From: Macrostomum lignano
Lineage: Eukaryota
NCBI GenBank assembly: GCA_002269645.1
Contig: NIVC01004450.1
Span: 1-45,542 of the forward strand
DNA: 45,542 bases
Reading direction: 5' to 3'
Of the stretch, positions 11,358 to 29,520 are shown in pieces. Under the pieces are notes generated by a model that searched no databases, had not been told where the DNA came from, and saw only the letters and a list, made by a program, of their open reading frames with translations. Position 1 is the first letter of the stretch. The number at the start of each line of letters is the position of its first letter. Made by a program: the position numbers and the translations under genes.

Positions 11358-11614
11358 CTACTGCTGCAGGATTTGCTTTGGCTAGTGAAATATTTTGTTT
11401 TGGAATTTTGTTTTCCGGTAACAAGGTTAACTCAAACGTACAATGCTCAACGTACATCTTTAAACAAAAAGCGATATCTTCGCTCAATTCCGATCAATGG
11501 CTACTTTCCGCTACGGAAGCGATTCTCTGCTTTATCAAGTACTTGTTTTTGCTGTTTAGACCTCATCAAAACTGCACTGCTAATAAAAACTATACTTTAT
11601 CCGCAGTTTCAACC

Positions 11615-11717
11615 AGTAGTATACGTTTTTTTGACACAAAGCCGATTTCCTTATGGCGAAATACATAGTAAGTACAGGCCCAAAAAATGGCAGAGTCCGA
11701 AATTTCATGTGCACGCA
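11615..11717 (+). repeat. Maverick left TIR
   Basis: AGTAGTATACGTTTTTTTGACACAAAGCCG...; first 83 bp identical to the reverse complement of the right end. Confidence 0.95.
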
Positions 11718-12172
11718 GTCTGAAATTCCATGTGCACGCAGTCTGAAATTCCAAGTGCACGCTAAATATCTTTTACGCAACGTGATTATTCAGACGAATT
11801 GCATATCCACCTGTCCAAAATACAAGTAACCGATTCTAGCAATGGTGACACAAACACACTTCAAAGGATTCCATTCAAGACAAATTTACTCCAAAGCTAT
11901 TCACACATTTCAAGTGTTATTGAAATATTGAAAACTTGTGAATATTATCACCCTTTTGAAGAAAGATAGTAAATGATCTATTCTTGAGTGCCTATAGAAT
12001 TTTTGCACCAACTTGAGCAGATGGTTTACAGATACTATGTCAACAACTGCGTCAACATGCTTCTTCTTTATACTATATATATATACGAACACACTGACAC
12101 AGAAAATATTAAATAACTTAAACCAAGTTTACATTATACTACTTGTTCAACTATACTTACATCTTAAGTGAA

Positions 12173-12824
12173 ATGAAGCGATCACGTCAGCAGGAATTGG
12201 CCGAGCGCTATGTTAAACAAGGTAAGATAATCACCTACTCTAGTTCAGTTTTCTTTTTTAGATTGACTGTTCGCTATAGTTTAGTTTCTAGATTGATTGT
12301 TAGTTCGGTTTCTGTTTAGACCGATCCTCTGTTTGTTCAGTCTCTAGATTGATTGTCTGCTAGTTCGGTTTCTGTTTAGACTAATACTCTGCTAGTTCAG
12401 AATTTCTAGATTGATTGTCTGCTAGTTCGGTTTCTGTTTAGACTGATTCTCTGCTAGTTCAGTTTCTATATACATTGTATACATGCACCTATACCAAATT
12501 TCCCTCATCTTATCCATTATTATAGCATTCAAGAATGGTTTCTTCACGCGGCCACCTCCAGATCAGTGCAAACGCATTTGCCACGACACCACCACATCCA
12601 ATTCTGCTGCAAGAGCATCATATTCTACATCTCTCGCCAGAGTAACCTCGATTCATGTCGAGAGACAGACAACTGAGCTAGATCGCATTTACACAAGAAC
12701 TGATGTTATTCAGTCAATTAGGCAGCAATCGAACCCACGACCAACTGACCAACTGCAGTATGCACCACCACCACCATCACCAACCAGCTACAATGACCCA
12801 CCCAACAAAGCAAACTTGCAGTAA
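12173..12824 (+). CDS. Putative spliced ORF of unknown function (exons 12173-12221 and 12526-12824, ~115 aa)
   Basis: ATG at 12173, donor CAAG|GTAAGA, polypyrimidine acceptor TTATAG|CA at 12525. Phase 1 matches on both sides, giving MKRSRQQELAERYVKQAFKNGFF... Confidence 0.45.
12240..12470. repeat. ~60-bp degenerate tandem repeat within putative intron
   Basis: Recurrent CTAGATTGATTG(TCTG)CTAGTTCGGTTTCTGTTTAGAC units. Confidence 0.75.
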
Positions 12825-13294
12825 GCCTACAAGTACCAAACCAACGACAGCAACTGAAACACCATCATCATCAATTGCCATTTCTACCCAAGTTCAACCG
12901 CTGCTAAACTCGCCAATTATTGTACAGAAGGACATCAAGTCTGTAAAAGTCTCTCAAATGAGCACAGGCTTCTACCAAGTAGAATTAGCAAAGACCTGTA
13001 ATACAACTCAAGTATTTGAATATTGGGACCTATCTTAAAAAGACATTTTTTCTAACTCTTCATAAAATTTTGCCAGCAATGTGTCCAAGTAATTGCTCTT
13101 TTAGTATATATCAAACAAGTCTGTAATCAATAATATAATCTCTATAAATTCATTATTCTAAAAAATTCTTTCAATTTTATTCACCATTCATTGAAATTAT
13201 TTAATTCAATAAAAAGTCAATATCTTGTACAGTCATCATTAAACAAAAATTATTAATCCATGCAAATAATTTTTTTTTCATACGTTTCTTTAGC

Positions 13295-14190
13295 CATGGT
13301 CTGGCTTTTGCCTCAACAGTATGATTTAGCTGTGGTCCAGCTTTTGCCTCAACAGTATGATTTAGCTGTGGTCCAGCTTTTGCCTCAACAGTATGATTTA
13401 GCTGTGGTCCAGCTTTTGCCTCAACAGTATGATTTAGCTGTGGTCCAGCTTTTGCCTCAACAGTATGATTTAGCTGTGGTCCAGCTTTTGCCTCAACAGT
13501 ATGATTTAGCTGTGGTCCAGCTTTTGCCTCAACAGTATGATTTAGCTGTGGTCCAGCTTTTGCCTCAACAGTATGATTTAGCTGTGGTCCAGCTTTTGCC
13601 CAACAGTTTTTAGCCGTGGTCCGGCTTTTTTGCCTCAGCAGTATGATTTAGCTGTGGTCTAGCTTAAAACTGCATCAACAGTGATTTAGCTATAGTCCAG
13701 GCTTAACTACCTCAACGATGATTTAGCTATAGTCAAGGCTTAACTGTCTCAACAGTAATTTTAGCTGTTGTCCAGACTTAACTGCCTCAACAGTGATTTT
13801 AGCTGTGGTCCAGGCAACTGTCTCAACAGGGATTTAGCTGTAGTCCGATTAGCTTAACTGTCCAGTTATTTAGCTGTGAGCCAAGCAGCAGCACCCGTCT
13901 CAACAGTGAGAATTAGCTATGGTCAGCTTTACCTCAACTGTGATTTGGCTGCTGTGGTCTAGCATAACTGACTCAACAGTAATTTTAGCTGTAGTCGTCC
14001 AGCTTAACCACCCGTCCAGTTTTATAACCATGGTCCAGCTTAACCACCGTCTCAACGTACAGCGATTTAGTCGTGGTCCAGCTTAACCGTCTCAACGTAC
14101 AGTGATTTAGCCATGGGTCTAGTAGCAATTAACCGTATCAATAGTGATTTAGCCGTGGTCCAGCTTAACTGTCTCAACACAGTAATTTAG
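13295..14190. repeat. 36-bp minisatellite inside the Maverick, perfect then decaying
   Basis: About 8 near-perfect copies of CAGTATGATTTAGCTGTGGTCCAGCTTTTGCCTCAA (13317-13600), followed by progressively diverged copies to ~14190. Confidence 0.95.
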
Positions 14191-14816
14191 CTTAGTCCAA
14201 ACAGCATTTGTGTGTCAACTGCACTGACTGCATGCGGTTATAGCAGCGGCAGTCATTATAGTCCCAACAAGCTGCGCGTCGCAGCATGATAGTGTAACTC
14301 TATATAGCTTCTGCTCAATATAGGACTGCAAAAGCTGAGTTACAACTATACCTTTTTCTGTTTGAAAAGTAACACTCTATATATAGGTTACTCAAGCAAT
14401 CTCTTGTCACCGTGCGAGCTAAAAAATTCCAACATGCAAGCAAAACTTTCAATAAATTAATTTCATAGCACCGCGTGCAGCTTATTTTTACTCTAAAATC
14501 CAAGATTGCTAATTTTTCAAGTCGCAAAATATTTTAATTACATTCTACTTGAGAACAAAACCAATCTAATGAAGCAGCAACCAGCAGTCTTCTTATTAAA
14601 CGCTTGCCATCGTGTTACTCTTGCAAATTTATAACTAGTGTGCCTAAGATTCATTAATTTTATTGTATAAAATATCAACCTACATTTGCGTAAAATTAGA
14701 CCTAATCATGCAACCCACCCTAGAAACTTATGCCACCTTTGGCACGCAACAATGTCTTAATCAGCACGCAACAATTAAATTTGTTTACTAGTTCACAAAC
14801 AGCATGCAATGCTTGC

Positions 14817-14824
14817 TATAAATA
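14817..14824 (+). promoter_or_regulatory. Canonical TATA box candidate upstream of the SSB-like gene
   Basis: TATAAATA 85 nt upstream of ATG 14902. Confidence 0.4.
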
Positions 14825-14901
14825 CAAGACCCGAAATGTCAATTTTTCATGAGCTCAATCATTACAGCAAAAGAAATACTATATTCAATTGCTTGTAAGA
14901 C

Positions 14902-16100
14902 ATGGCAGCTTGCATCAAGACGGAGTCAATTGTACGCTCCGACTCGAGTCCGATTTTTTACGTTGGAGAGCAGTCTACAACCACGACTGGTTCGTCCTGC
15001 CAGTTTCGATCTATTGCGTGGAAACCATCAATCGAGTGTACAAAATGGTACCCAATTATATTGCAAACCAAGGCTCCAATGGAGCTTTTTCGTGGAATCG
15101 CAGAAAGGCCAGAGCTCGATCATCCGTCTTGCAGACACGACTCTCGCGACGCAGTAAGTGTCCAATTTCATCCAGACAGCTGCGATAAGGAACTCTTCCA
15201 CTCTCTCCGGTGAGCACCATATTAAATTTATACAATTAATTTTAGGAAACTATATTCATAATTTATATAATGTTTTGCAGTCAAGTCGAAAAAGGTCTAT
15301 CGGTCAAGTTGAACGAGATTCAAGATGCTCGACCCTTGGCACGACTAACAAAACCAGCTCATCAGCATGCTAACGACGTCCTCGAGTTTGTGCCTCAACA
15401 ATGGCTGGCTATAAAGCCTGCTTACCCTTGTGCCACAATCAGGATCAGCAACGATCATCCACACGGGAAGGAGGTGTCCATTTCCGATTTCAAAGGTGTC
15501 AGCGGTACCTACCAAATGACAGTGCAAGCAACGAGCTTGTATTGTCCAAAAGGCTGCCTCGTCTGGCGCATTACATTCGCTGTGCGCTCTCTGACACTCA
15601 TAGAATCTTCCGACAACATGTTGCAGCGCCTCGACATGTTCAAGGGAGTGCTTGCACACCTACCCGCGACCAAGTCAGCAATTAGAAGCAGGAGTCCGTC
15701 CCCAACATCTACCTGTGAGCAAGAAGAAGCAAATGAACAAAGCCTGCAGAATTCAAGCCAGGTGACACCTGCCAAGTCACCTGCAAAGCGTCGGTCTACC
15801 ACCACCGTATCGAAGAAGTCGACTACATCGAATGCAGCGCCAGCCTCTATTGAACCGCCGCCTAAAAAGCAAGTTCGAAAACGCAGCGGTGCAAAACAGC
15901 AAAACAATTCTGCCGAAGCTGGTGCAGATGGCACAGACTGGGTGGAGGCTCCACCAGCAAAGATCTTGGTGAGTACACCTGCCTCTGGAACCAGGGTAGC
16001 GTCCAAGGAGACAGCATTTTTAAAGCGTGCTGCTGCGGACGCTACTACAGCTAGCGTGTCTTCATCGGACGACTCGTACAGCAGCTCTGATGATGAGTAA
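14902..16100 (+). CDS. Spliced 375-aa protein, candidate OB-fold ssDNA-binding protein (exons 14902-15209 and 15281-16100)
   Basis: 71-nt intron CG|GTGAGC...TTTTGCAG|T with matching phase 2. PIILQT..M..FRG and GTYQMTVQATSLY...WRITF patterns recall T7 gp2.5/NCLDV-type SSBs. Basic linker and acidic tail SSSDDSYSSSDDE. Gene structure is well supported; the function is inference. Confidence 0.6.
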
Positions 16101-16310
16101 CAAAATTTTTGACTAATTTTATCCAAGTTTTAACTAACTTATTCCACTATATTTATCAAATTTTTGGCTAGGGAAATATTATTTTTTAGGGAAAAGCTCA
16201 AAACATTTTTTGCTACTCCTTGTACGCTAACCAGGTTTTGTAATTTAATATTAGAATTTACGATAGTATAGTCATGTTTAACTTTTCTTATTATTTATTT
16301 TCCGTTTTAG

Positions 16311-16868
16311 CGACTTGTCCTATTAATAGTTACTGCGAGTCTGAAGCTGCACCCGTTTGAAAAATTTGATTTAAAGCAGACCAAACAGAAGCTACAGACC
16401 AGAAACCGGTTTTGCAAACTATTCCTAAGCCGACCAACAATGCTAAAGACAATTTATTCAAATGCTAAAATCCAACTTTATCCAGCAGGAAAACTAACTA
16501 TATATGGCTGTAAATCAAATTCTCAGATAGTCTCAGTTTTACGATTTATCAACGACACTATTAATTGTGTAGATTTTGATTCAGTAAAAATTCAGAGCAG
16601 TACCTATGTCGGCTTTATTGGTCATCTTTGGCCAAAATTCGGTTTCTCTAGTCTAAAAAGATATGCAGGCTACTATTCGAATTATCTGGTTGGATACGAT
16701 GCAGAAAATTTCCCACAAGCAGTTTCTGTTAGATCAGCATCAAAACCAAGGCTTTTTTGTAACATATTTTTTTCGAAAAAGTTTGTTATTATGGGCGTTC
16801 AAAACACTCATGAATTGAATAATATTCTTAACCATGTCAAGGATTTTTTAATCTCTGTTAATAACTAA
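16311..16868 (+). CDS. Divergent TATA-binding-protein (TBP)-like protein, full two-repeat core; 5' exon not identified
   Basis: Frame is open from the splice acceptor TTTTAG|CGA at 16311. Repeat 1: LIVTASLKL..KFDLKQ...AKIQLYPAGKLTIYGCKS (TBP: NIVSTVNL..KLDLKT...TTALIFSSGKMVCTGAKS). Repeat 2: KIQSSTYVG...YDAENFPQ...KPRLFCNIFFSKKFVIMG (TBP: KIQNMVGS...YEPELFPG...KPRIVLLIFVSGKVVLTG). Confidence 0.8.
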   Translation, partial: RLVLLIVTASLKLHPFEKFDLKQTKQKLQTRNRFCKLFLSRPTMLKTIYSNAKIQLYPAGKLTIYGCKSNSQIVSVLRFINDTINCVDFDSVKIQSSTYVGFIGHLWPKFGFSSLKRYAGYYSNYLVGYDAENFPQAVSVRSASKPRLFCNIFFSKKFVIMGVQNTHELNNILNHVKDFLISVNN

Positions 16869-17090
16869 ACTTAACAAGTAAACAATTGCTGTCAAATCGC
16901 AGTTGCGATGCATTCTTTTACAAACATTTTGTCTTTTTTTTTTATTTACCAATTGTTTTCTCTAATAGTAAACGTGTCAGCTATACCTATAACTAACCAA
17001 ATCATCATTTTTCTTACAGCCGCAAATGACAAACCGGATCATCTATTAATATTATGCTCGATACGCTCGTTGTCGAGCTAGGTGCACACA

Positions 17091-18152
17091 ATGCCGCGTG
17101 CACAATGCCAAATCTGCAGAAAAAAGTTCAGTAATCAAGCCGAGCTGCATGCTCACTCGCATGGTGCTTGTTTTTCACCGCAACGATTACTGACCGGATC
17201 GCTGCAAAACCTGATCGAAAACCCACCAGATGGGTGGTCCATCGCTTTGCGCGAGTCAGCTCATCGTGGTCGGGTAAATTTTGTCGAATTTACTCCCACT
17301 CTTGAACAACAAGGCAACAGCTCTGGCGAGTTACTTCCTGGCGAGTTGATTGCGTCTTTAAGAGAACCAATATTTAAAATATTGGAAAAAATTGGCTCAC
17401 CCAGTTTATTAATAAGAGTCTGCTTTCACTTGAAAGTGACACTATTTCGACCGAAAACAGCAGCAGACGACAACGATGGCTCGAGCAGCGAAGAGATCAT
17501 TTCGGTCTATTTTAATACCAACATTGCGACAATATCATTTGATGAGACGATTGCAAACAGTGACATGCTGTTATCTCCCGAGGCCTACAATGACTGGTTC
17601 GCACGCGTTATTAATCAGTTGTTAATAAAAATTGACAATTTTCAATCTCGAGGTAGTAATTGGCAATATAGAGCAATCGAGCAGCTAGACTTGATGCTCT
17701 GCGTTTATCGCAAAAGCCATGCAAGCACACTGTCAACAAATACGTCCCACGGTGGTGTGGGGGCGGGCGGCGGCAGTGGTGGTGGTGGCGGCGGTGGTGG
17801 TGGTGGTGGTGGCGGCGGTGGTGGTGGTGGTGGTCGGCGGCGGCGGCGGCGGCGGCGGGCGCGGGGAGTCCGGTCCAGTCCGGTCCGGTCCAGTCCGGTC
17901 CGGTCTGGTTAAGCAGCAATCGTTTAAAGTTCCAGTCTCAATCGGTCGCAAAGCTGGAGCAGTACTGCTTCTAAAGCCGCACAGAGCAGTTTAAAGCATC
18001 AAGACTATTTAAGAGTCTTACACAAGCGACAACTTGTGTTTTCGCGCATGCAGTCCATTCGTTCTCGAAAACAGAAAGTTTTTTTTGATGCAACAAAGAA
18101 AACTTGCACTAAGCTTCTTCGATACGAAGCGATCCTGGACAAGTTCAATTAA
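17091..18152 (+). pseudogene. Protein-primed DNA polymerase B remnant: N-terminus fused to extreme C-terminus
   Basis: C2H2 finger CQICRKKF...HAHSH and the Maverick pPolB N-terminal motif F.SRGSNW...I..L.L. After a microsatellite, a shifted frame (~17965-18152) reads SKAAQSSLKHQDYLRVL...SIRSRKQKVF, resembling the pPolB C-terminal tail. No exonuclease or polymerase motifs lie between. Confidence 0.7.
17752..17907. repeat. Compound GGT/GGC, CGG and GTCCG/GTCCA microsatellite
   Basis: (GGY)n, then (CGG)n, then pentamer repeats, seen directly. Confidence 0.9.
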
Positions 18153-18481
18153 TTCGCTACCCTTTGGACACTGGCACTTGGCTAATTAATTAACAATATG
18201 CTCTGATCTCTTTTGTTGTACAAAGTAATAGCATGCTATAGAAGACTGTAACCCATCATTAATTTTTTCATTGATCATTATTTACAATAAATAAATGATA
18301 CCGGCATTCGTTTAAATTATAATTTTAGCACTTTTTTGTGTTTAATTATTTGAAAAAGTATATTTTTTATAGTTAGATTCTCAAGACTAAGCTTGTGTTT
18401 GTAGTAGACGTAAATGTAGTGCTATCGTTCATGTTTCAAGAAAAAAAACTTTTTTTTAAACTTTCAGCTACAAGAATCGAC

Positions 18482-18964
18482 ATGAATCCCGAGCAGCAGC
18501 AGCAACAACAACTAACTGATCGTAAGCTTTTAGTTGAACGTCTATACGATTCGGCAACGATTCCGACCCGAAAAACTGTCGGGTCGATCGGGTATGATCT
18601 TTGCGCTGGCGTCGATGGTACCATTCCGGCCTACGAGTCCCGGAGTGTGCGAACCGGACTCAAAATTCGCTTACCGCCTGGTACCTATGGCAGGATAGCG
18701 GGACGTTCCAGCATGGCTCTGCACAGCTTATTTGTTGGCGGTGGCGTAATCGACCCCGACTATACTGGTGAAATCTGTATAGTCTTGTTTAATTACAGTC
18801 CGGAAGACTTTGAGTACTATGCCGGGCTCAGTATTGCACAACTGGTTCTGGAGCAGGCCGTGCTTGCTTCAGTCTATGTGACTGAAGCAGACAATTCGAT
18901 TCGGATGATTGAGCCGCCGACCAAGCGGCGCGGCTTTGGCGGCTTTGGCAGCACTGGCCAATAA
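18482..18964 (+). CDS. dut: dUTPase (trimeric type)
   Basis: All five motifs: GYDL, GRIAGRSS, GVIDPDYTGEI, IAQLV, RRGFGGFGSTG. Likely ATG at 18482; the ORF caller used an upstream GTG. Confidence 0.95.
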   Translation: MNPEQQQQQQLTDRKLLVERLYDSATIPTRKTVGSIGYDLCAGVDGTIPAYESRSVRTGLKIRLPPGTYGRIAGRSSMALHSLFVGGGVIDPDYTGEICIVLFNYSPEDFEYYAGLSIAQLVLEQAVLASVYVTEADNSIRMIEPPTKRRGFGGFGSTGQ

Positions 18965-19055
18965 GTATAATAATAATAATAAACTGATTTTTTTCTTTGG
19001 TGATTGGTGCACTATGCGAGAGCTTTGTAAATACTATAAGCAATTTTAAAAATTT

Positions 19056-19499
19056 ATGCCTAAAATATATGTTGTAAAAATGTCTCCAGCGAAAGATCGA
19101 GGTTTTAAAAAGAAAAAGAAGAGCATTCGTAAAAAGAAGAAATCTATTAGAAAGATTAATAAAAAGCAACAAGGTTATGGTGTCGTAAATTGGTTAATTA
19201 ATCATTTACCATTTGAAGCACATTTACCCGGCGGATATCAGTTTTGTGGTCCAGGTACGCAACTGCAAGCTAGGCTAGCAAAAGGACAACGAGGAATTAA
19301 TCGGCTTGACAATTTGTGCATGCTTCACGACGTGGCCTATGATAAAAATTCTGACGTGCAAGAGAGGTTAAAAGCTGATAAGCTATTAGAATCTGGTGCA
19401 CGAGAGATTGCCCACGATCCGTCTACTGGTTGGAAAGAAAAACTAGCTGCGAAGTTGGTTACCAAGGTTATGCAAGTTAAGCAACGCCTTATTGCTTGA
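19056..19499 (+). CDS. Parvovirus-VP1u-type phospholipase A2 virion protein (PLA2X-like)
   Basis: HLPGGYQFCGPGT calcium loop and LDNLCMLHDVAY catalytic HD. Lys-rich N-terminus followed by QQGYG. Confidence 0.9.
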   Translation: MPKIYVVKMSPAKDRGFKKKKKSIRKKKKSIRKINKKQQGYGVVNWLINHLPFEAHLPGGYQFCGPGTQLQARLAKGQRGINRLDNLCMLHDVAYDKNSDVQERLKADKLLESGAREIAHDPSTGWKEKLAAKLVTKVMQVKQRLIA

Positions 19500-20211
19500 A
19501 AATGCAGCAGCCATACAATATGCAACTAGCTCACGATTCTACATTTATTATGCTGGACCTTCAAACTCGGGTAAAACTGAATGGACGTTGCGTTTGTTGA
19601 CTGAACGAAAAGAATTATTTGATAAAAAACCGTGCCGTCTTGTTTGGTGCCATGGATCAAGTTTGAAACCAGACGATCAACAACGAATTAGAACATGCTG
19701 GCAAAAAAGCGGTCTTGACCCTATTGTTTTTGTACCCGAATTCACACCACAGATGATTAATCGTTTTTTACCACACGATTTGGTTGTTGTTGACGACTTG
19801 CAAAGCGAGATTGCTAAGTTGCCAGAATTTACTAGTATGTTTACAAAGCATGCGCATCATATCCCTTTGACTTGTCTGTACCTTTGTCAAGGTCTTTTTA
19901 ACAAGTCTGATCCAGAAGCACGCATGCGAAGTTTATCAGCTAGTTATATTTGTCTAACTCGTAGTGTGCGCGATCGAACCACAGTTGAACATCTCGGTCG
20001 ACAAATGTATCCGCGTAATAGTAGGTTTCTAGTGAATGTGTATGAAGACGCAACAAATAACAAACCTTTTTCATATTTATTCATTGACCTGCGGCAAGTG
20101 ACACCAGATTTTTTACGATTGAGAACAGGAATATTTCTGGTGATGAACAAGTTGTCTATACTCGTGAATGTGATGCAAAGTTTGTGTAATATTATTATAA
20201 GCAAATTATAA
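19492..20211 (+). CDS. FtsK/A32-like DNA packaging ATPase
   Basis: Walker A GPSNSGKT, Walker B VVVDDL, and C-terminal KPFSYLFIDL...RLRTGIF typical of Maverick ATPases. No in-frame ATG before Walker A. Confidence 0.92.
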   Translation: MLENAAAIQYATSSRFYIYYAGPSNSGKTEWTLRLLTERKELFDKKPCRLVWCHGSSLKPDDQQRIRTCWQKSGLDPIVFVPEFTPQMINRFLPHDLVVVDDLQSEIAKLPEFTSMFTKHAHHIPLTCLYLCQGLFNKSDPEARMRSLSASYICLTRSVRDRTTVEHLGRQMYPRNSRFLVNVYEDATNNKPFSYLFIDLRQVTPDFLRLRTGIFLVMNKLSILVNVMQSLCNIIISKL

Positions 20212-20246
20212 ACTGTTGTCAATATTAGTTTGTGTTTTATTTCAAA

Positions 20247-21236
20247 ATGAGTTTTTACGTTTTTTTGCCGTCAAACGATATCAGTTACGAAACCAACTCG
20301 CCTAATGAATTTCGAGTGCGACTAACTGAACCAATAAATTTATTGAACGGATTCTTCGAGGTTGCACTAGTTGAATTACTGTGCCATGGAGCAATTACGA
20401 CGCCAAATGCTCATCGTGAGCGTCGATTTGAAGTTCCATATTTTGCGGACATTGACTCAATAATACGATTAAAGAAAAACTATTGGGGTCGTGTTTGGGC
20501 AGAGGCAGACTTGGATGCTTACGTTTCCTGGCAACCGTCTGGTACAGATGAAAAATTTGCCTGGCTTTTACGAAATTCAGGCGAAAAAACTATTGGATTA
20601 GAACTACCAGTTACATTTATGGACGCTTTCAAATTTGACTCTTGGAAGAAACTTTCTGGACTTGTCTCGGAAAAATTATCAAAACCTGCCGCTGGTAGTG
20701 TACAACCACCGGATGGTTCATACTTGGATTTGATAAAAAGTCTCGACAATACTCTAGCGCTAGTACCTGAGAACTATTATGTTTTTTATTGTGTTCTATC
20801 GCCTGGTGAAGCTATACGACTTGTTTCGCATGGAGACTATCTTCGAAAAACGGAAGGAGAAGTGTACATCAAAGTACACCAATATTGGTTGAGAAATCGT
20901 GTTTGGCGCATTAACAAAACCTACTTGGATGCTGTGCTACCTTCTCCGATGCCTAGTAAAACGGTTTACATGTACTGTTACACAGATATAATCGAGTATC
21001 AAGCAGTGGGAAGTACATCAGTACCGTTGCTTCGAGTTGTGGAACTCCAACAAAAGAAAAACGGAGAACTTATACGCGATAGCAGTGCATTGCAAACACC
21101 CTACTACTTGAAAACAAATCGACAACAAATTCACGAGATTTCGATTCGACTATCGGACCAGCGCGGAAAACCGTTTAATTTTGATCCGGGAGCACACGTT
21201 GTTGTCGTACTGCATTTTAAACATAGGTCGGACTAA
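20247..21236 (+). CDS. Minor capsid protein (penton, single jelly-roll)
   Basis: N-terminal MSFYVFLPSN...FRVRL..PI.L...FEVALVE and C-terminal YCYTDIIEYQ.VG....PLLR...ISIRL.DQ.G..F.F....VVVVLHF match Maverick pentons. Confidence 0.88.
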   Translation: MSFYVFLPSNDISYETNSPNEFRVRLTEPINLLNGFFEVALVELLCHGAITTPNAHRERRFEVPYFADIDSIIRLKKNYWGRVWAEADLDAYVSWQPSGTDEKFAWLLRNSGEKTIGLELPVTFMDAFKFDSWKKLSGLVSEKLSKPAAGSVQPPDGSYLDLIKSLDNTLALVPENYYVFYCVLSPGEAIRLVSHGDYLRKTEGEVYIKVHQYWLRNRVWRINKTYLDAVLPSPMPSKTVYMYCYTDIIEYQAVGSTSVPLLRVVELQQKKNGELIRDSSALQTPYYLKTNRQQIHEISIRLSDQRGKPFNFDPGAHVVVVLHFKHRSD

Positions 21237-21292
21237 TTTATAAGCAAAGATTAATTGTGTAATAGAAAATTTTGTGAATTTGTTTTGTAAGA

Positions 21293-21725
21293 ATGAGCGA
21301 ACTAACAGAAAAAGGAAAACAAAATGCTCGCTCATTGTGTCAGTGTGCTTTTTTACTACAAATTGTTTATCGGCTAAAGCATCCAAAGCAGAGAAAAAGT
21401 TTTTTACAAACACTTTCAGAGTCGGAGATACGATGTCTAGTAGACTTTCTGTTTAATATTATTAGTGGACGTATTAAAATTAGTAACTGTAACAAAAGAC
21501 GACTCGAGAAGCATCGCAGATATAGCTATACGCCAGCTTTTGGAACAGAAGACTCCAATTACTGCAAAAAGGAAAATACTTGTCCAACACGGATGATTTT
21601 TACCTTTTTTGGCTCCAATTATTGCCGCTCTACCTGCTATAAGCACTGCGCTTGGGATAACGTCTGGAGTAGTTGGTACCGCCGCGGGAGCAGCGAATTT
21701 AATACGATCAATTCAACGAAAGTAG
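21293..21725 (+). pseudogene. Maverick small basic core-type protein (PW/cupiennin-like; naming uncertain) with frameshift and nonsense codon
   Basis: RKSFLQTL...IRCL...NII.G.I....KRRLEKH, then a +1 shift near 21520 gives AIRQLLEQK..ITAKRKILVQHG*FLPFLAPIIAAL...RK*. TGA at 21594 sits where GG|F is expected. Confidence 0.8.
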
Positions 21726-21735
21726 TAGGAATATA

Positions 21736-22425
21736 ATGCGAACTAACGAGAGTAGTAGTTTTCAACGAATGTATCTAGTACCTGAATCTGTGTATCAATC
21801 TGCATGTCAAGGTGCAGAGCAAGGATCGTCACCAACTGCTGAGACACCTCGAAAAACTGAAGTTTTAGACGCACCGCAAGATGCTCTGGCAAAAAATATG
21901 GTGGAAATGAGAGACCAAATGGATAACTTGGACAAGGAAATGGAAAAGGAGCCAAATTACACAGCTCAATTGAAACGAAGCAGATTGGAAGACAAACTTT
22001 TAAAATTGCGCAAAGTCTATCGCACTGGAGACGAGGACAATCTGTCACTTGTTCGCAAAGGGACTACTGTAAGAAGTTCATATGCCAGCGAATCAAGGGA
22101 AATTCCTAAAGTTTTTTTACCACGTTTCGAAGCTCTCGCTCAAAACCTATTTTCGGACATGGACAAGAATGCAGAACCAATGCTGGCTAATTTGACTGAT
22201 GCCGAGATACAAGATCTCATGGAATATGTTGTTCGAGACAGACCGCTTAAGCGACACGAGACTCAACCGCCTAGTGGACTAAAAACATTTTTAGACTTTC
22301 TTCGAAAACGTGGAATCGCAGCAAACCAAATCGGGCGTCATGTACGAAACGAGCTAATGTCTGCTCCAAAAACTGTTGCAAAGGAGGATCTTAGTCTGTT
22401 TGAAAATTATCAAACACTGAATTAA
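21736..22425 (+). CDS. Conserved Maverick ORF (PZ-like; naming uncertain), 229 aa
   Basis: N-terminal RMYLVPE and C-terminal PPSGLKTFLDFL...QIG patterns recalled from Maverick ORFs; position in the virion block. Confidence 0.55.
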   Translation: MRTNESSSFQRMYLVPESVYQSACQGAEQGSSPTAETPRKTEVLDAPQDALAKNMVEMRDQMDNLDKEMEKEPNYTAQLKRSRLEDKLLKLRKVYRTGDEDNLSLVRKGTTVRSSYASESREIPKVFLPRFEALAQNLFSDMDKNAEPMLANLTDAEIQDLMEYVVRDRPLKRHETQPPSGLKTFLDFLRKRGIAANQIGRHVRNELMSAPKTVAKEDLSLFENYQTLN

Positions 22426-22526
22426 GTTGTTTTAAATGTTTTAACAAAATTGATTCGAGCACTATAAGCTTTTTAAAAAGGTTACTTTTTTGTTTATTAA
22501 AAATATATAGTTTAATAAGACAAACC

Positions 22527-22715
22527 ATGTCATCTATCTTCCAAAAACTTTTGATTCGTCTCTGTGAGTTTTTTTGCATAAAATCTGAATGTGTGCCGTT
22601 TCTGGGAAAGGAGCACAACGAGGATACTGACGGAGATTCGATCGAGGCTTCGTTCTTTTGTTGCAACTGTCAAACGACTAGCATCAATCTAACTGATGAT
22701 GAAGCGAGTGCGTAA
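22527..22715 (+). CDS. Small Cys-rich/acidic ORF, 62 aa, unknown
   Basis: ATG-initiated, preceded by TATAAGC at 22463, and overlaps the integrase start as neighbouring genes do. Confidence 0.35.
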   Translation: MSSIFQKLLIRLCEFFCIKSECVPFLGKEHNEDTDGDSIEASFFCCNCQTTSINLTDDEASA

Positions 22716-23856
22716 GGAAATTGAAGAATTTTTGACGGATTCTTTTTTTAACTTGAACAAGCCTACTTCATTTAGTGGTAACAAGACTATACTTGTTCGT
22801 TAAGTACGTAAAAAGTTTCCACAGATTACGAACAAAGTTGCAAAGCGCGAAGTTGATAATTGGGTGCGATCAACAAATGAGCATCATTTATTTCGAAAAA
22901 CACGACGAAACTTTCCAACTCCAAAAATTAGTGTGCCACCAGTTGCAAAGTTTCAGTTTCAAATCGATTTGGCAGATTTACCTCAATACAAGACGGAAAA
23001 TCGAGGTTATCGTTACATACTTGTTCTTATCGACTGTTTTACTAGAGTTGTACGACTAAGACCATTGCGTACAAAGAAGCCTTCAGAAGTTAGTCAAGTA
23101 TTACTAGAGATTTTTCGAAGTGGTTTTAAGCCTGTTTATTTACAAGGTGATGCTGGTATGGAGTTTCTCGGAAGAGCTACACGTCAAATGCTGAAACAGG
23201 AAGGAGTTCGATTTTTTGTTAGCCAAAGCAATTACAAGGCAAGCATGGCTGAACGATTTATCCGCTCGTTAAAGGAACGTCTATTACGATACTTTCGAGC
23301 AAAAAATTTACCTCGATGGTTTGACATTTTGCCACAATTGGAAGATAATTTCAACTCTAGTCCTCATCGATCCTTGAGTGGAGAAACACCAAAACGTGTA
23401 GAGACAGACCCGCATTTACAAGGAATTTTGTGGGACAAAATGTTTGCGAAGTCGTACACTAAAAATAATGAGAATAAATTTAAAGTTGGTGATTGGGTTA
23501 GAATTACACGACGTCGAGGAACATTTGAAAAAGGATACACTACGACTTGGAGTAATTCAAAATATCGCATTCAGCGTGTACACTTGACAGACCCGCCAAT
23601 GTACGAATTAGTGGACCCTGAAGATGGATTTGAAGTGCTGAAAGGAAGGTTTAACCAAGCGGAACTAATGTTGGTAAACGAGACAGATGAAACACCTAAT
23701 GAAATTGAAAAAGTTATTGAAACTGATCGAGCGAAAAATGGAAGTCGTCTGTATCTAGTAAAATGGAAAGGTATGCCAATCTCAAGAAGTCAGTGGTTAA
23801 ACGAAAATGATCTTGACGCAAAGACTGCTAAACTATTTTCTAAAGTGTATAAGTAA
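22696..23856 (+). pseudogene. Retroviral-type (rve) integrase with C-terminal chromodomain, premature stop at codon 36
   Basis: DDE motifs QIDLADL, LQGDAGMEF and SMAERFIR; chromodomain YLVKWKG...SQW. ATG at 22696 is in frame and encodes the conserved F...KPTSFSG N-terminus, but TAA lies at 22801-22803. Confidence 0.92.
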
Positions 23857-23897
23857 CACATGAATTGGGATTGCATGACGAAGAGAAGACTGTTGAA

Positions 23898-24356
23898 ATG
23901 GATCCTATTTTTGCTTTTTATTCTGGTCCGAATAGATCTGCTGAAGGTGGAGGTGGATATGGCATTCCTGTTTACGAAGGTTACGGTTTTTTGTCAAATT
24001 TGGCGGACAGATTGGTGTATCCTGTACTACGCAACGCAAAGAAAGATTTCTTGGATCGTGGTCTGGAGTATTTGAAAAGTGCGACAGCAAAAATTGGTAT
24101 GGGTCGGAAGCGTCACTTGGACACAGAATCGAGCGAAGAGATGTTTAATACACCTGCAGTCTCGAGACCAAAGCGAAGGAAAAGAACCAGTGGAGTGGCT
24201 ATAAGCTTAGGAAAGAAGAAACGGCAAAAGAAACGACGAACAAGACAGTGTGGAAAGGGACGCGTGAACAAAAGAAAACGCAAGATTACCGGTGGTATAG
24301 GAAAACGTCGAACTGCTACTGCAAGCAAGAAACTTTTTAGTCTGTTTGAAAAGTAG
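23898..24356 (+). CDS. Basic Gly/Arg/Lys-rich core (genome-condensing) protein
   Basis: Y..P...G.GYG.PVY.GYGF..L...L.PVL N-terminus and highly basic C-terminus, located immediately before the capsid gene. ATG at 23898. Confidence 0.7.
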   Translation: MDPIFAFYSGPNRSAEGGGGYGIPVYEGYGFLSNLADRLVYPVLRNAKKDFLDRGLEYLKSATAKIGMGRKRHLDTESSEEMFNTPAVSRPKRRKRTSGVAISLGKKKRQKKRRTRQCGKGRVNKRKRKITGGIGKRRTATASKKLFSLFEK

Positions 24357-24357
24357 C

Positions 24358-25680
24358 ATGAACCATTTGCTTGGACCTGATATTGCTGCTCTTAAAAGTG
24401 AATTGTCGCTATTTGATCAAAGTCCTGTTCAGTTTAGTGTTTTGGATAATCGATATACTAACATTCAACCGCAACATGGTATTACAAAAGGATCACCTAT
24501 CGAATTTGAAGTTGTGCCTGCAGGCGATTTGTATTTGGATCTACAAGAAACTGTGCTCACGGTATGCTTCAGCGTTAGTGATAGTGAAGGTGAACCTATA
24601 GATGCAACGAAAAATTTTGTTTGTTTGAATAATTTGGTTATTGGAACATTGTTTGAAGACGTTCAATTTACTATTGGCGATACTGTAGTTGAAGGTGGTA
24701 GTTTTATGTATCCATACAAGGCTATGCTTCTCACATTACTGGAATATGGACATACAGCTCAGAAGGCTGGTTTACTGCCGTGGGGGTTTTACAAGGATAC
24801 AGCTGGTAAAATGAATGCAACAAGTGAAAACGATGGACGAACAAAGAGGCAGGCGCTCATTGCTAACAATAGGCGGTGCACTGTATCGGGGCCGTTATTC
24901 TTGGATTTGTTTCGTCAGCCTCGGTATCTACTATCAAAGACACCACTATGGATCAAGCTCATACCGGCAAAAAGTAAATTTGTCCTGAGCGGGTCAACAT
25001 TAGAAGCTGGTGCGGTTTTAAAAGACTATGAGATCAAGTTTTTGCGTGCAGAACTACGATTGCGGTTTGTTCAACCCTCGCCGAGTGTTATCAGTGCACA
25101 TGCTCATGGACTTAAAAGTCACAATGCATTATATCCGCACCGAAGTCTAAGCCTTGGTACGTTTACTATACCCCGAGGATCGTCTAGCCATACGCATGAA
25201 AATTTGTTTCCTAGTGGGGTACCACGGCTTTTATTGATGGCAATCGTAAGCAACAAGGCATTCAATGGAAGCATGGACACAAATCCGTTCAACTTTGAGC
25301 ATGCAAATGTGAGCAGCATTGGTGTGTTTGTGAATGGAGACTCGGTACCATCGCGTCCGCTGCAGACAAACTTTGGAGATGATTGTGTGACAGAGTATAA
25401 TTTTTTGCTACAACAGCTTGGAATCTATCTACAGGGACGAGATATTGGATTTAATATGCTGGATTACGCCAATGGTTACTCAATTTTTGCATTCAGTCTT
25501 GGAAGTGAACCTGGTGTCGGACGGGGAGTGCAACTGTATAAGGAAGGAAATGTAAAACTAGAGTTACGCTTCAATGCTGCAACTAGTACCGTGTACAACG
25601 TCATATTTGGAGGTATATTTGACAAGCAACTGCAACTGACTGAACTTCGCGACATTGTTCCTGGCACAGTATGGAAGTAA
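24358..25680 (+). CDS. Major capsid protein (double jelly-roll, hexon-like)
   Basis: ELSLF...PVQ.S...PIEF.V...D.YLDL..T N-terminus; GPLFLDLF.Q.RYL; FNF.H.NV..I...VNG; ~440-aa open frame. Confidence 0.93.
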   Translation: MNHLLGPDIAALKSELSLFDQSPVQFSVLDNRYTNIQPQHGITKGSPIEFEVVPAGDLYLDLQETVLTVCFSVSDSEGEPIDATKNFVCLNNLVIGTLFEDVQFTIGDTVVEGGSFMYPYKAMLLTLLEYGHTAQKAGLLPWGFYKDTAGKMNATSENDGRTKRQALIANNRRCTVSGPLFLDLFRQPRYLLSKTPLWIKLIPAKSKFVLSGSTLEAGAVLKDYEIKFLRAELRLRFVQPSPSVISAHAHGLKSHNALYPHRSLSLGTFTIPRGSSSHTHENLFPSGVPRLLLMAIVSNKAFNGSMDTNPFNFEHANVSSIGVFVNGDSVPSRPLQTNFGDDCVTEYNFLLQQLGIYLQGRDIGFNMLDYANGYSIFAFSLGSEPGVGRGVQLYKEGNVKLELRFNAATSTVYNVIFGGIFDKQLQLTELRDIVPGTVWK

Positions 25681-26234
25681 TTGATTCTATCCTAGATCGT
25701 GGTGTAACAGATCGCTTCCTTCGCAATGTTGTATCGAAATTGTGCGCACATTTTTTAAATGTTGTATTTCTTGGTGTTTTTCCTCAAAACTTTGTTGGTG
25801 GACTTGCACGCTTACCTTTAGACGGTAAAGACTATTTTTTTATCGTTAATACTGACGTCTCCAACCTGCCCGGAAAACATTGGGTATGCGTTTGGGTTTA
25901 TGGTCATCGAGCAGGTCGCGGTAGCAAACGACTTGGTGAATATTTTGATTCTCTTGGTCTAGTACCATTGCCAAGAATAGCAAAATGGCTAGGAAAAGAA
26001 TGTGGAAATTCGAAAAATTGGTGTTATAGTCGCTTTGCTATCCAAGACCCACAGAGTGGAAGTTGTGGATTTTGGGTAATTTTTTATATTTTTCATAAGT
26101 TGACTATCAGAGGAAACCTAGAGTGTTTTATTCGAAGCGTTTTTAAACGGAATATAATTCGCACTGGTTCGTTTCGATACTTGTATGCTAAATTACGCAA
26201 TTTTGTTTTACGAGTGCTGCCTCAATATTTGTAA
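25671..26234 (+). CDS. Adenain-like cysteine maturation protease
   Basis: FLGVFP, IVNTD....GKHWV (His), EYFDSLG (Asp), Q...SGSCG (Gln/Cys); overlaps the MCP stop codon. Confidence 0.93.
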   Translation: MEVIDSILDRGVTDRFLRNVVSKLCAHFLNVVFLGVFPQNFVGGLARLPLDGKDYFFIVNTDVSNLPGKHWVCVWVYGHRAGRGSKRLGEYFDSLGLVPLPRIAKWLGKECGNSKNWCYSRFAIQDPQSGSCGFWVIFYIFHKLTIRGNLECFIRSVFKRNIIRTGSFRYLYAKLRNFVLRVLPQYL

Positions 26235-26468
26235 ACTCGCTAATTTGTGCGTCAAATTGTGTTTGTATCTAGTTGAAATATACAATACTGCTTGAAAAGA
26301 AGAATTTAAATGCGTTAAGTTATACGCGAAATAAGCTTTGTGTCAAATTGAATTTTGGTTGGGCTTGTAATTAGCAGCATTCATTGCGGATAGAATTTAG
26401 GTGGATAGACAGGTGTTTGCGTAAAAGTGATTCAGCTAATTGGTTAATTCATTGCGTAAAAGCTAGTT

Positions 26469-26571
26469 TGCGTGCACGGCAAATTTCAGACTCTGCCATT
26501 TTTTGGGCCTGTACTTACTATGTATTTCGCCATAAGGAAATCGGCTTTGTGTCAAAAAAACGTATACTACT
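26469..26571 (-). repeat. Maverick right TIR
   Basis: Reverse complement of 11615-11717 with 4 mismatches, ending ACTACT. Confidence 0.95.
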
Positions 26572-27154
26572 GCGGTCTGCACTCCGAATCGTGAAAAATA
26601 AAACAAAAAATTCACTGGCTCTGAAGTGCGTAAAATGCGTACGCAAGTTGGCAGACATTCGGAGTACAGAAGAGAAAGAATAGCCCAGACTGCGGACAAT
26701 CGAGGCGCACACAACTACAGTGCATTGCACAGCGGTCTACGCTCAGCACTGTGACGAATTCGAGCCATTGCTGTGCGCATAGAAAAGAACTTTGGTACCG
26801 CATTTCGGCCCACAGAATCTGCCTGCTTGCAAGGACAAAAAAGAGATGACTAACCAGAGCTGCTGTAGCTGGTACGAGTAGTAAAATTTTTTAAAGACAA
26901 ATCGCGTCAGTGCGTTGCGTTGCCATGCAGGTGAGAAAGTAGGCTGCTTTCCTGTATTAGTATTTTGCATGACGATTCCATGAACTTTGTTTTATACATT
27001 CTAAGTTTGATGACCATTTATTTTATTAGGACGCTCAGGGGTCAGTGCTGCAGCAAGACAACGAGCAACAACCGCTGCTGCCGGAGAGAAAGGTACACTA
27101 AATATCCCCTCAGAAGGTATTTAAAAGATATACAGTATATAAAGTGTACCTCTG

Positions 27155-27455: not shown

Positions 27456-27564
27456 TCACCCCCTAATGAATGCAACCCTGAATCCGGGTTGTAAGCAGCG
27501 GCAACTACTAGCGTATTTGAGTTTTCAACTCTGTTTTTCCCCGCAGACAGCCGCATCTGCAGAA

Positions 27565-29520
27565 ATGAGCGTGGTGTGGAAGATCGCGGGCATCGCACTT
27601 ATTTTTGCACTGGTGTCGTTTGCCTGCGTTGTGGAGCTTCGAGCCTACGAGCAGAGCCAGAGGGATGTAATCTGCAACGAGGGCGAGTGCCACAGGTCAC
27701 CAGAGGTCAACAGCACCAGGCACAAGGAGGTTTGGTTAGCGTGCCTGTCCTCCAGGTGTTTTCTTGCGTCGCTGGCGTTGGTTGCCATGGTAACCCTGGA
27801 GTGTGTAGCTCTAAGACATAGAATAGTTGATTCTGTGAAAATTGGCAGCGTGCTGATTAAAAATTTCCCATCTTGCGTCAAGGGAACGCCCGAGCTCTGC
27901 AGCCTGCCGTCCGATCTCCTCGTCAAGGCGTTTTGGCTCTTCGCCATCCCGAACTGCCTGTCGATGGGGATCGAGGTCGGCTGCGAGATCGATGAAATCT
28001 TGAAACACAAGGAGTGGGAGTCTCACTCCGCAACCATGATTGCCTGGCGGGTACTGCTGTTCCTCTGTACCATTGTTCAGATCCGACTGGTAGCCAAGTA
28101 CGCATTCCAGTCCATTCAGCTGAGGCTGGGACTCTCCTGGATCATCCTGTCCGCCATCATGTCATTCAACATAGCCGTGTGGTTCTCCACCATCGGCCTG
28201 GAGGTTCAGGGCATCAACGGCGCAGAGAAGGTGATTCCGAAAGGCTCCAATTGCGACGAGAACTCGTTGGGTCATTTCAACGAGCTGCTGTACCCGTTTC
28301 AAATTGAGTACTGCGTCATGGGCTCTCTGATGGCCTTCACGCTGATGTCCAACCTGGGCAGGGTGGCGAATCACCTGCAGAGGCAGCATTTTCCCGATTC
28401 AGACGCTGTTGAAAGGAAAATCAAAGAACTGCTGCAGCCTGCAGAAAGCATGACCACACACCGACAATTCTTGCCCAACTTCGAGGTCATTCGTCAGCAT
28501 TCGTTAATATTTGTCGCCGAGCTGCTGCTGCTTATCCTCTCAGTGGCCTGTGTGGCGTTCGTGCGCTTTGACGATCCGAACAACAGCGTCAGAGGCATTG
28601 TCTTCAACTTGACGCTGCTGTTGTTGCATTGCTTTGGGATGGCGACTCTCCTCATCATGTGTTGCTACATCAGAGGCGACAACAAGCAAAAGATCAGCGC
28701 CACGCACTTTCCTGACCGGTTGCTGCTGTGGCTGGGCACAGCCGCCATCCTGCTGAACAGCGTGTACAGGCTGTGGGGCAACACAAACGTGTTAATTTTG
28801 GAGGGCAATAGAGTTGAGAATACGACCGACCACAGCGTGCCGGAGTACCCGATGGTCTCGCGAAATCTGACCGAGGCCAATAAAATCAGACTGGAACTGC
28901 AGATTGGCAACGCGATATCCAACTTAGTTCAGAGCGCCGCTCAGACCGCTCTGCTGGAGTGGATCCTGATCAGCAGGTTCTCAAACCACAGCAAGCTGAC
29001 CGAATGGTGCAAAAGTCTCCTACGGTTACAATCACAACCACGTCAGGACCAACCACGTCAGGACCAACCACGTCAGGACCAACCACAACGTCAGGACCAA
29101 CCACAACGTCAGGACCAACCACGTCAGGACCAACCACAACGTCAGGACCAACCACAACGTCAGGACCAACCACGTCAGGACCAACCACAACGTCAGGACC
29201 AACCACAACGTCAGGACCAACCACATCAGGACCAACCAATTAGTCCCAAAATCTGCGCCCTGCTCAACCTTCTGATGGTGATCAACGGAGCTGAATGGAT
29301 TCTGAGCGCCCTGTGCTTCCCGTTCTTCTTTCCTGAGGATCAGAAGGACGCCCTCTCGCTACTGCTGACGCCGCTGCAGGTGTTCTACGCGTTCCACTCA
29401 GCCATTTGCATTCACGACTTCAAAGGGCATCTGAAAATGGAGGCCGCTGAAGCCGATGACGAGCAAGTTGCAGAGGATCCATTGGCTGTTAATTTTGAAA
29501 ACATCTTCGGTCAAAACTGA
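27565..29520 (+). CDS. Otopetrin-like proton channel, intronless coding region
   Basis: Multi-TM protein with LLYPFQIEYC (family LYPF.IEY), LVQSAAQT, INGAEWI and QVFYAFHS (family FYRFHS). Likely ATG at 27565 follows a splice acceptor at 27546. Confidence 0.85.
   Translation: MSVVWKIAGIALIFALVSFACVVELRAYEQSQRDVICNEGECHRSPEVNSTRHKEVWLACLSSRCFLASLALVAMVTLECVALRHRIVDSVKIGSVLIKNFPSCVKGTPELCSLPSDLLVKAFWLFAIPNCLSMGIEVGCEIDEILKHKEWESHSATMIAWRVLLFLCTIVQIRLVAKYAFQSIQLRLGLSWIILSAIMSFNIAVWFSTIGLEVQGINGAEKVIPKGSNCDENSLGHFNELLYPFQIEYCVMGSLMAFTLMSNLGRVANHLQRQHFPDSDAVERKIKELLQPAESMTTHRQFLPNFEVIRQHSLIFVAELLLLILSVACVAFVRFDDPNNSVRGIVFNLTLLLLHCFGMATLLIMCCYIRGDNKQKISATHFPDRLLLWLGTAAILLNSVYRLWGNTNVLILEGNRVENTTDHSVPEYPMVSRNLTEANKIRLELQIGNAISNLVQSAAQTALLEWILISRFSNHSKLTEWCKSLLRLQSQPRQDQPRQDQPRQDQPQRQDQPQRQDQPRQDQPQRQDQPQRQDQPRQDQPQRQDQPQRQDQPHQDQPISPKICALLNLLMVINGAEWILSALCFPFFFPEDQKDALSLLLTPLQVFYAFHSAICIHDFKGHLKMEAAEADDEQVAEDPLAVNFENIFGQN
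29032..29238 (+). repeat. In-frame 15/18-bp coding repeat (QDQPR/QDQPQR)
   Basis: CAGGACCAACCA(CAA)CGT units within the otopetrin-like ORF. Confidence 0.95.

Follow-up and report, generated by a model that had tools for sequence, protein, structure and literature searches.

A TATA-like box before the particle genes of a Macrostomum lignano Polinton and a TBP-fold protein of the same element as its candidate reader

The contig NIVC01004450.1 of Macrostomum lignano (NCBI GenBank assembly GCA_002269645.1; positions 1 to 45,542, hereafter the window) contains a 15-kb Polinton/Maverick (11615-26571), on whose coding strand the hexamer TATAAG occurs repeatedly upstream of genes. The analysis presented here suggests, with a probability of roughly two in three, that the motif TATAAG[C/T][A/T] represents a late core promoter of the virion, packaging, and integrase units, which would be read by the element's own TATA-binding protein (TBP) together with host TFIIB and RNA polymerase II (Pol II). 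The sequence evidence also suggests that the Polinton activates its particle genes itself, not through a helper virus. What the data show is a conserved box with a regular spacing to gene starts, a protein with a TBP fold, and a match between TBP type and box type in three Polinton lineages. A first-pass annotation of this DNA had named no binding factor for the motif; a candidate is encoded by the same Polinton at 16311-16868. The Polinton genes and boxes described below for the window are located on the + strand.

An exact scan placed TATAAG at positions 19035, 20196, 21239, 21638, 22463, 23848, 24200, and 25537, and thereby reproduced all eight positions of the first-pass annotation as well as the distances to the following ATG codons listed there. 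Six of these sites read TATAAGC, the exceptions being 23848 (TATAAGT) and 25537 (TATAAGG). Within the gene block at 18965-26234 (39% GC), eight occurrences on the + strand compare with one on the - strand, and the left part of the Polinton (11600-18964) is devoid of the hexamer on both strands. The rough estimate that less than one TATAAGC would be expected in the block also held: six were observed versus 0.40 expected (Poisson 4e-6), a result that becomes marginal (~0.07) once corrected for all 7-mers. TATAAGC ranked first among the 5102 observed 7-mers, and TATAAG was not enriched in the whole window (17 observed versus 20.9 expected). The count by itself is marginal evidence after correction; the strong signal is the location upstream of genes. 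All eight sites lie at most 160 nt upstream of eight different starts (nine genes considered), this limit having been chosen post hoc, after inspection of the data. When the site positions were permuted, none of 2,000,000 random placements equaled the observed eight, and five reached seven. Ranked by the number of genes headed, TATAAG was the first of 2890 6-mers, with non-overlapping 6-mers reaching at most four genes.

To describe conservation, five subfamilies of the lineage represented by the window copy (lineage A) were compared, namely the window subfamily, C889, C297, C4948, and C1680, counting exact TATAAG at most 300 nt upstream. Their capsid proteins are 66-80% identical to that of the window, and TATAAG was kept in 27 out of 30 cases at six positions. 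The first three of these boxes share the word TATAAGCA: the box at 19035-19042 precedes the PLA2-domain gene and the abutting ATPase gene (four of five subfamilies), the box at 20196-20203 is found 51 nt before the open reading frame (ORF) 20247-21236, which we take from its position to be the minor capsid or penton gene (5/5), and the box at 21239-21246 is found 54 nt before an ORF starting at 21293, presumably 'PW', which is followed by an abutting ORF starting at 21736, presumably 'PZ', both labels again being assigned by position (5/5). The other three are TATAAGCT at 22463-22470, 64 nt before a small ORF and then the integrase-chromodomain gene (4/5), TATAAGTA at 23848-23855, which overlaps the integrase stop and lies 50 nt before an ORF starting at 23898 and assumed from its position to be core-like (4/5), and TATAAGCT at 24200-24207, within the core-like ORF and 158 nt before the major capsid gene (5/5). 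A promoter role of one sort or another is highly probable for these six. The site at 24200 is read as xxT ATA AGC in all five subfamilies, with the preceding residue varying (A, S, G, T, T). Since the nucleotides are kept while adjacent residues vary, selection on DNA is indicated; codon shares give ~6e-8 for four independent retentions, although the subfamilies are related to each other.

Two of the eight sites remain outside this set. The TATAAGCA at 21638-21645, within PW and 98 nt before PZ, occurs in the window subfamily only (1/5) and is perhaps a recent gain or a chance occurrence. The TATAAGG at 25537-25543, 134 nt before the protease ORF starting at 25671, corresponds to Tyr-Lys-Glu codons of the capsid gene and is present in 3/5 subfamilies; the other two subfamilies encode the same Tyr-Lys pair with synonymous codons (TAC AAA or TAT AAA), and this site is probably a coding coincidence.

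The comparison with other Polintons of the same genome provided a second line of evidence. Lineages A, B, and C each carry a distinct TBP-like gene, and their box words are TATAAG[C/T][A/T] in A, TATAAATA in B, and YTTAAGAA in C; an unbiased comparison of upstream k-mers returned TTAAGAA for C and TATAAATA for B. On the coding strand, TATAAGC was counted four to six times per block in five A elements and was absent from B and C, TATAAAT occurred six to seven times in two B elements and 0-1 times in the other A-C elements, and YTTAAGAA occurred six to seven times in three C elements and 0-1 times elsewhere, with chance expectations of 0.2-0.7. The matrix is therefore diagonal: four to seven occurrences of a box in the lineage it belongs to stand against 0-1 in either of the others. 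For a further lineage, D, no TBP match was obtained in the stretches covered, where the D element is perhaps incomplete, and its upstream regions featured only an A-rich run abutting the ATG. The lack of whole-window enrichment and the marginal corrected count speak for chance combined with codon constraint in AT-rich DNA, which does account for the site at 25537 and perhaps for that at 21638. As an explanation for six of the eight sites it is contradicted by the permutation result, the conservation of six positions in divergent subfamilies, and the diagonal matrix, and its probability is close to nil.

The architecture of the box points to a TATA-type promoter. Across 31 lineage-A sites, the box comprises 8 bp, TATAAG[C/T][A/T], with an A-rich ninth base, the first seven positions being fixed by the search pattern. 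The bases around the core are fixed within each lineage across 8 bp, and the TBP site is likewise described as 8 bp (PMC1636458). For ten elements of the three lineages, all 52 box-to-start distances were at least 34 nt and 37 of them fell between 34 and 65 nt, these pairs being hand-picked and mutually dependent, with two starts set to the second ATG by homology, one of them that of the window PLA2-domain gene (+45 instead of +21). Stray ATGs amounted to 17 in 1144 nt up to +29, which corresponds to the background rate, and to 8 in 1861 nt from +34, a depletion; the contrast (p=0.002) assumes an independence that does not hold. Because of the spacing and the stray-ATG pattern, transcription would start ~30 nt downstream of the box, as in TATA-type promoters, rather than inside TAAG. 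Judged by these features, a TATA-type core promoter fits better than a start site of the baculovirus TAAG type.

The same observations bear on the proposal that the boxes are baculovirus-type (A/G/T)TAAG late starts at which a helper virus polymerase would begin transcription, in the way virophages borrow helper promoters. The core where baculovirus late transcription starts (PMC9927509) is included in the boxes of lineage A (as ATAAG) and lineage C (as TTAAG). However, no gene start among the 52 pairs lies less than 34 nt from its box, stray ATGs are tolerated up to ~+30 although an RNA beginning in TAAG would contain them, lineage B shows the same layout without TAAG, and each lineage keeps the bases around the core constant across 8 bp, all of which renders a helper polymerase very improbable. 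Searches of the genome for the polymerase subunits LEF-8/LEF-9 gave no match, and the controls likewise gave no match. Three of the six conserved sites (20196, 21239, and 23848) overlap or nearly touch the stop codon of the upstream gene, and AATAAA is scarce in the block, as would be expected if the motif were a 3'-end or polyadenylation signal of that gene. This explanation is very improbable: the best-conserved internal site is located ~156 nt before the stop of its containing ORF, a single host 3'-end machinery would have no need of three lineage-specific words, and the depletion of ATGs sets in downstream at a TATA-like distance.

In the first-pass annotation, the pattern had been taken to imply individually promoted, monocistronic late genes with one box each. 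A shared promoter element finds good support in conservation and spacing; the one-to-one assignment was overstated, since only six sites are conserved in the five subfamilies, and PZ (1/5), the ATPase gene (exact site in 1/5), and the protease gene (3/5) deviate from it. For the ATPase gene, the window contains only the near match GATAAGC, which was confirmed at 19377 (annotated as ~19378). Likewise, an ATG is indeed present 64 nt downstream of the 22463 box, but it opens a 62-aa ORF (22527-22715), the integrase ATG being at 22696. Because the ATPase, PZ, integrase, and protease genes begin at or near the stop of the preceding gene, the ten ORFs would be organized in about six transcription units.

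The candidate reader is encoded to the left of the block. The TBP-fold exon (16311-16868; open frame 16311-16865; 185 aa) is preceded by a pyrimidine tract and an AG acceptor, and it matched the Pfam family TBP (PF00352) at 2.3e-7, above the cut-off. Its predicted structure, a two-lobed saddle with a predicted local distance difference test (pLDDT) value of 93.6, found TBPs as best Foldseek matches (template modeling score, TM, 0.73-0.76), and the nearest viral structures in BFVD were nucleocytovirus TBPs. The protein had 78 matches in the genome; in those relatives that were mapped, its frame is flanked by ORFa and PolB. In total, a Pfam search of the genome yielded at least 150 TBP matches; six non-host loci were inspected, five of them residing in lineage C Polintons and one in a decayed C-type fragment. 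The host genome also encodes a canonical TBP and a TRF-like paralog. In lineage B, whose capsid is 30% identical to that of the window, the TBP-like frame follows a splice acceptor and has diverged even further. In subfamily C297 (L036:4539-5945, - strand), the TBP frame continues into a P-loop domain that appears deoxynucleoside kinase-like by eye.

The first in-frame ATG of the TBP frame (16440) falls within the fold, and no start codon is present ahead of it. Upstream, a conserved peptide within ORFa (15281-16100) is followed at 15969 by an internal phase-0 donor (GTGAGT), and such a phase-0 donor was found within ORFa in all seven lineage-A elements considered. Since a start codon before the fold is lacking, an acceptor is present at 16311, and the phase-0 donor is conserved, an ORFa-TBP fusion is predicted. 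A probable first exon of ORFa (14902-15209) and an intron (15210-15280, GT..AG) were placed by mapping a homologous junction to the window; the GT..AG joint of this intron was present in contigs from three of four sequencing runs (three studies), these runs being represented by contigs only and their RNA nature being a guess. For ORFa itself, no Pfam family was obtained, and its model (pLDDT 43, best structural Z 3.0) gave weak hints of a single-stranded-DNA-binding fold, a role that is to be regarded as a lead only; a comparison with ORF b of lineage B yielded no clear homology. A canonical TATAAATA box at 14817-14824, upstream of the ORFa/TBP locus, is a candidate early promoter. In keeping with this, TATAWAWR was found at most 900 nt upstream of ORFa, the presumed early locus, in five of six lineage-A elements, and the canonical TATAWAWR precedes eight of nine presumed early ORFs in lineages B and C, both counts being given with no chance control.

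Residues of the DNA-binding face were numbered by aligning the host TBP to the yeast numbers in Table 1 of PMC12529657. The lineage-A TBP retains F190, P191, F207, an aromatic Y at position 116 (F116 in TBP), and the acidic residues D/E186 and E188. In all five subfamilies, L114 is replaced by Q, V122 by T, and L205 by N, with Y or F at 124. Of the hallmark residues of TBPs, namely a quartet of intercalating Phe and a central pair of Asn, F190 and F207 are kept, 116 is Y, and the rest is lost. From these replacements, the DNA face of the element TBP appears remodeled and more polar. By pseudo-symmetry, the lobe lacking F99 and N69 would face the 3' half of the site, where the box leaves the consensus. 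A yeast TBP-L114F variant reportedly recognizes TATAAG, a point that carries no weight in the reading proposed here.

The main rival explanation accepts the box as a real late core promoter but assigns its reading to host TBP/TFIID or TRF, which would treat it as a weak TATA variant, with the element TBP having another job, for instance that of a decoy or a repressor of host TBP. The canonical TATAAATA of lineage B, the presence of a canonical TBP and a TRF-like paralog in the host, and a spacing that suits any TATA-type reader are all compatible with it, and entry titles of the PDB list wild-type TBP on the variants G(-26), C(-25), and T(-30). A single host factor, however, leaves three mutually exclusive and strictly kept boxes unexplained, YTTAAGAA deviates from the consensus at several positions, and the presumed early genes of the same elements retain the canonical TATAWAWR. 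A host reader is considered unlikely, though clearly less so than the explanations discussed above.

According to the preferred reading, in which the element's own TBP recognizes the box, the ORFa locus would be transcribed by host TBP and Pol II from its canonical TATA box, and splicing from 15969 to 16311, for which the signals are conserved, would join the TBP domain onto ORFa. The resulting protein would bind the variant box, which differs from the TATA consensus at positions 6-7, and its retained acidic stirrup may recruit host TFIIB and Pol II, with transcription starting ~30 nt downstream, as the spacing and the residues suggest. The RNAs of the approximately six units would then cover the ten ORFs, abutting downstream genes sharing those RNAs.

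Several observations weigh against this reading or limit its support. The ORFa-to-TBP splice junction was seen in none of the four runs, whose contigs traverse the region unspliced, and the lineage-A copy C4948 has boxes but no TBP match in its 9.9 kb covered. The lineage-A TBP has lost F99, N69, and N159, the residue alignment near F99 being uncertain, so that TATA-type binding is not assured. No initiator consensus was found at +25 to +35 downstream of the 31 lineage-A boxes, and the hand-picking and mutual dependence of the 52 pairs also count here. The lineage comparison comprises three positives and one negative, the possibly partial D; lineage B has a TBP-like gene and yet a canonical box readable by host TBP; the TBP gene of lineage C itself sits behind the lineage box, unlike in A; and the TBP tree, which joins A and B on long branches, carries no weight either way. 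Finally, the title of PDB entry 1QN5 names a wild-type plant TBP on the G(-26) TATA variant, which favors a host reader.

A more far-reaching proposal is that, in animal Polintons, a single gene provides a self-contained early-to-late switch. One spliced locus would yield a DNA-binding replication protein and, through a second splice, a version of it that carries a private TBP, and the TBP and 8-bp box of each lineage would have co-evolved, resulting in orthogonal late programs in one nucleus. This proposal is tentative and somewhat less likely than not. If it is true, Polinton families residing in one nucleus would not trigger each other.

The remaining features of the element are those of a Polinton, including terminal inverted repeats, a protein-primed PolB, an rve integrase, a double-jelly-roll (DJR) capsid, an A32-like ATPase, and a C5 protease. 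The terminal inverted repeats (left 11615-11717, beginning with AGTAGT; right 26469-26571) have 104-nt arms that are 96% complementary, with ends AGTAGT...ACTACT, the AGT-type ends expected of a Polinton, and close copies cease matching at ~11615 and 26571/2, respectively. A 6-bp target-site duplication is absent from the window copy (flanks 11609-11614 TCAACC versus 26572-26577 GCGGTC). The N-terminal remnant of the protein-primed PolB (17091-17990) lacks ~3.1 kb in comparison to longer copies, and the deletion joint is also present in three of the four sequencing runs. A lineage-A relative matched PF03175 at 2.4e-25 and also has an endonuclease VII. The window subfamily is a PolB-deleted derivative with ~25 copies sharing an identical TBP frame, which gives it the look of a non-autonomous form that was amplified recently.

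Further along the element, a dUTPase (18431-18964, Pfam), which in the window copy has no TATAAG upstream, is followed by the PLA2-domain gene (19056/19080-19499, Pfam), with the ATPase gene abutting downstream (Pox_A32, E 0.0036, below the Pfam cut-off). The small ORF 22527-22715 lies directly upstream of the integrase gene; it was found in all five subfamilies (57-99 aa, CC motif), and Pfam returned no family for it. The integrase-chromodomain gene (22696-23856) shows rve at 3.9e-8 and a chromodomain, and has one in-frame stop near 22801. It is followed by the basic core-like ORF (23898-24356) and the DJR major capsid protein gene (24358-25680, 440 aa), which gave no direct Pfam match and was assigned by an Atlas score of 0.98 to clusters where 14-30% of the members have PF21738. 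The capsid protein had 97 genome matches with identities from 100% to 30%. The protease ORF (25671-26234) matched Peptidase_C5 at E 0.03, below the Pfam cut-off. Compared to a close copy, the window copy has frameshifts in the ATPase gene and PW, and some of its frameshifts and the stop may be assembly errors. A degenerate tandem repeat of ~36 nt is located in the left arm of the Polinton (13260-14200).

The other lineages differ in gene content. Lineage B elements (L041, L043, L067, L070, L073, L075, and L078) are ~9 kb long and encode integrase, capsid, protease, ATPase, and the TBP-like frame; PolB was not matched in the 20 stretches examined. Lineage C (L058, L055, and L061) features a PC4-domain gene (PF02229) that follows a canonical TATA box; the TBP ORF of this lineage begins in a different frame within the ORF before it, so that the two overlap. 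In lineages D and F (L086-L088, L083, and L059), genes are located on both strands and TAAAAATG or AAAAATG abuts nearly every start codon, which recalls poxvirus-type late starts or simply an A-rich start context. The PolB-only elements C491, C566, C173, and C234 have no capsid block and were left out of the comparison. A divergent short ORF, PC4-like by eye, was observed in PolB-only elements with no capsid block nearby (L089-L096 and L099). Elsewhere in the window, a Tc1/mariner transposon with 223-nt inverted repeats (2226-4323), a 780-bp element with 186-nt inverted repeats (10578-11357), an intronless otopetrin-like ORF (27466-29520), and a 23-nt satellite array (41068-43200) were recognized.

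These results bear on the expression of Polinton capsid genes and on the need for a helper virus. With a defined box and a candidate factor at hand, late expression of Polintons becomes directly testable, and the box can be used to mark the transcription units of these elements in sequence data. Moreover, three TBP/box pairs in one genome represent a natural test of how TBP specificity is rewired.

Outside this genome, no relatives were found in viral or metagenome contigs, and searches at the protein level yielded cellular TBPs together with a small number of element-like proteins lacking genomic context. With the adintoviruses and Polintons described by Starrett et al. (PMC8502044; bioRxiv 10.1101/697771), the element shares inverted repeats, PolB, rve integrase, A32-like ATPase, C5-like protease, DJR capsid, and PLA2. 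A TBP label appears there in a figure legend, and the main text of both versions contains the word 'promoter' zero times and describes no box or mechanism. Terms for promoter or TBP were also absent from PMC11296320 and PMC11161782, and a literature search whose scope excluded subscription journals and supplements retrieved no paper on a Polinton TBP/box pair. The late promoters of baculoviruses resemble the A and C boxes, which contain the DTAAG core, and not the B box, which is without it; baculovirus late transcription is started inside TAAG by a viral polymerase (PMC9927509), whereas the spacing and ATG pattern of the Polinton point to ~30 nt downstream. A virus-encoded TBP fold is also known from the TBP homologues of nucleocytoviruses. 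Nucleocytoviruses mostly bring their own RNA polymerase and TFIIB, whereas no RNA polymerase or TFIIB genes are found among the ORFs of the 15-kb Polinton.

The closest parallel is the late transcription of beta- and gammaherpesviruses, represented by ORF24 of KSHV (Kaposi's sarcoma-associated herpesvirus), where a virus-encoded TBP fold likewise goes together with a minimal, non-canonical TATA-like box (TATTWAA) before structural genes (PMC12529657), the Polinton side of the likeness being one of co-occurrence only. Host Pol II (proposed for the Polinton), a polar DNA face, and the kept equivalents of F190, P191, and F207 are further common features (PMC12529657). ORF24 comprises 752 aa, is one of six members of a complex, makes direct contact with Pol II, and has no acidic TFIIB-binding residues (PMC12529657), whereas its Polinton counterpart consists of no more than the TBP fold, to which ORFa is probably joined by splicing, and in which the acidic residues are kept and F99 is lost. 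Partner activators of the ORF24 type were not identified, no search aimed at the five partners having been made. Herpesviruses are unrelated to Polintons. With its different box (TATAAGYW instead of TATTWAA), the bare fold, and the kept acidic residues, the Polinton pair of TBP and box does not belong to the herpesvirus system of viral TBP (vTBP) and viral pre-initiation complex (vPIC). By analogy, the Polinton TBP may nevertheless work like ORF24, and if the single-gene switch outlined above is true, Polintons would have evolved on their own a minimal equivalent of the late complex of herpesviruses, and their TBPs would form a natural series with altered specificities.

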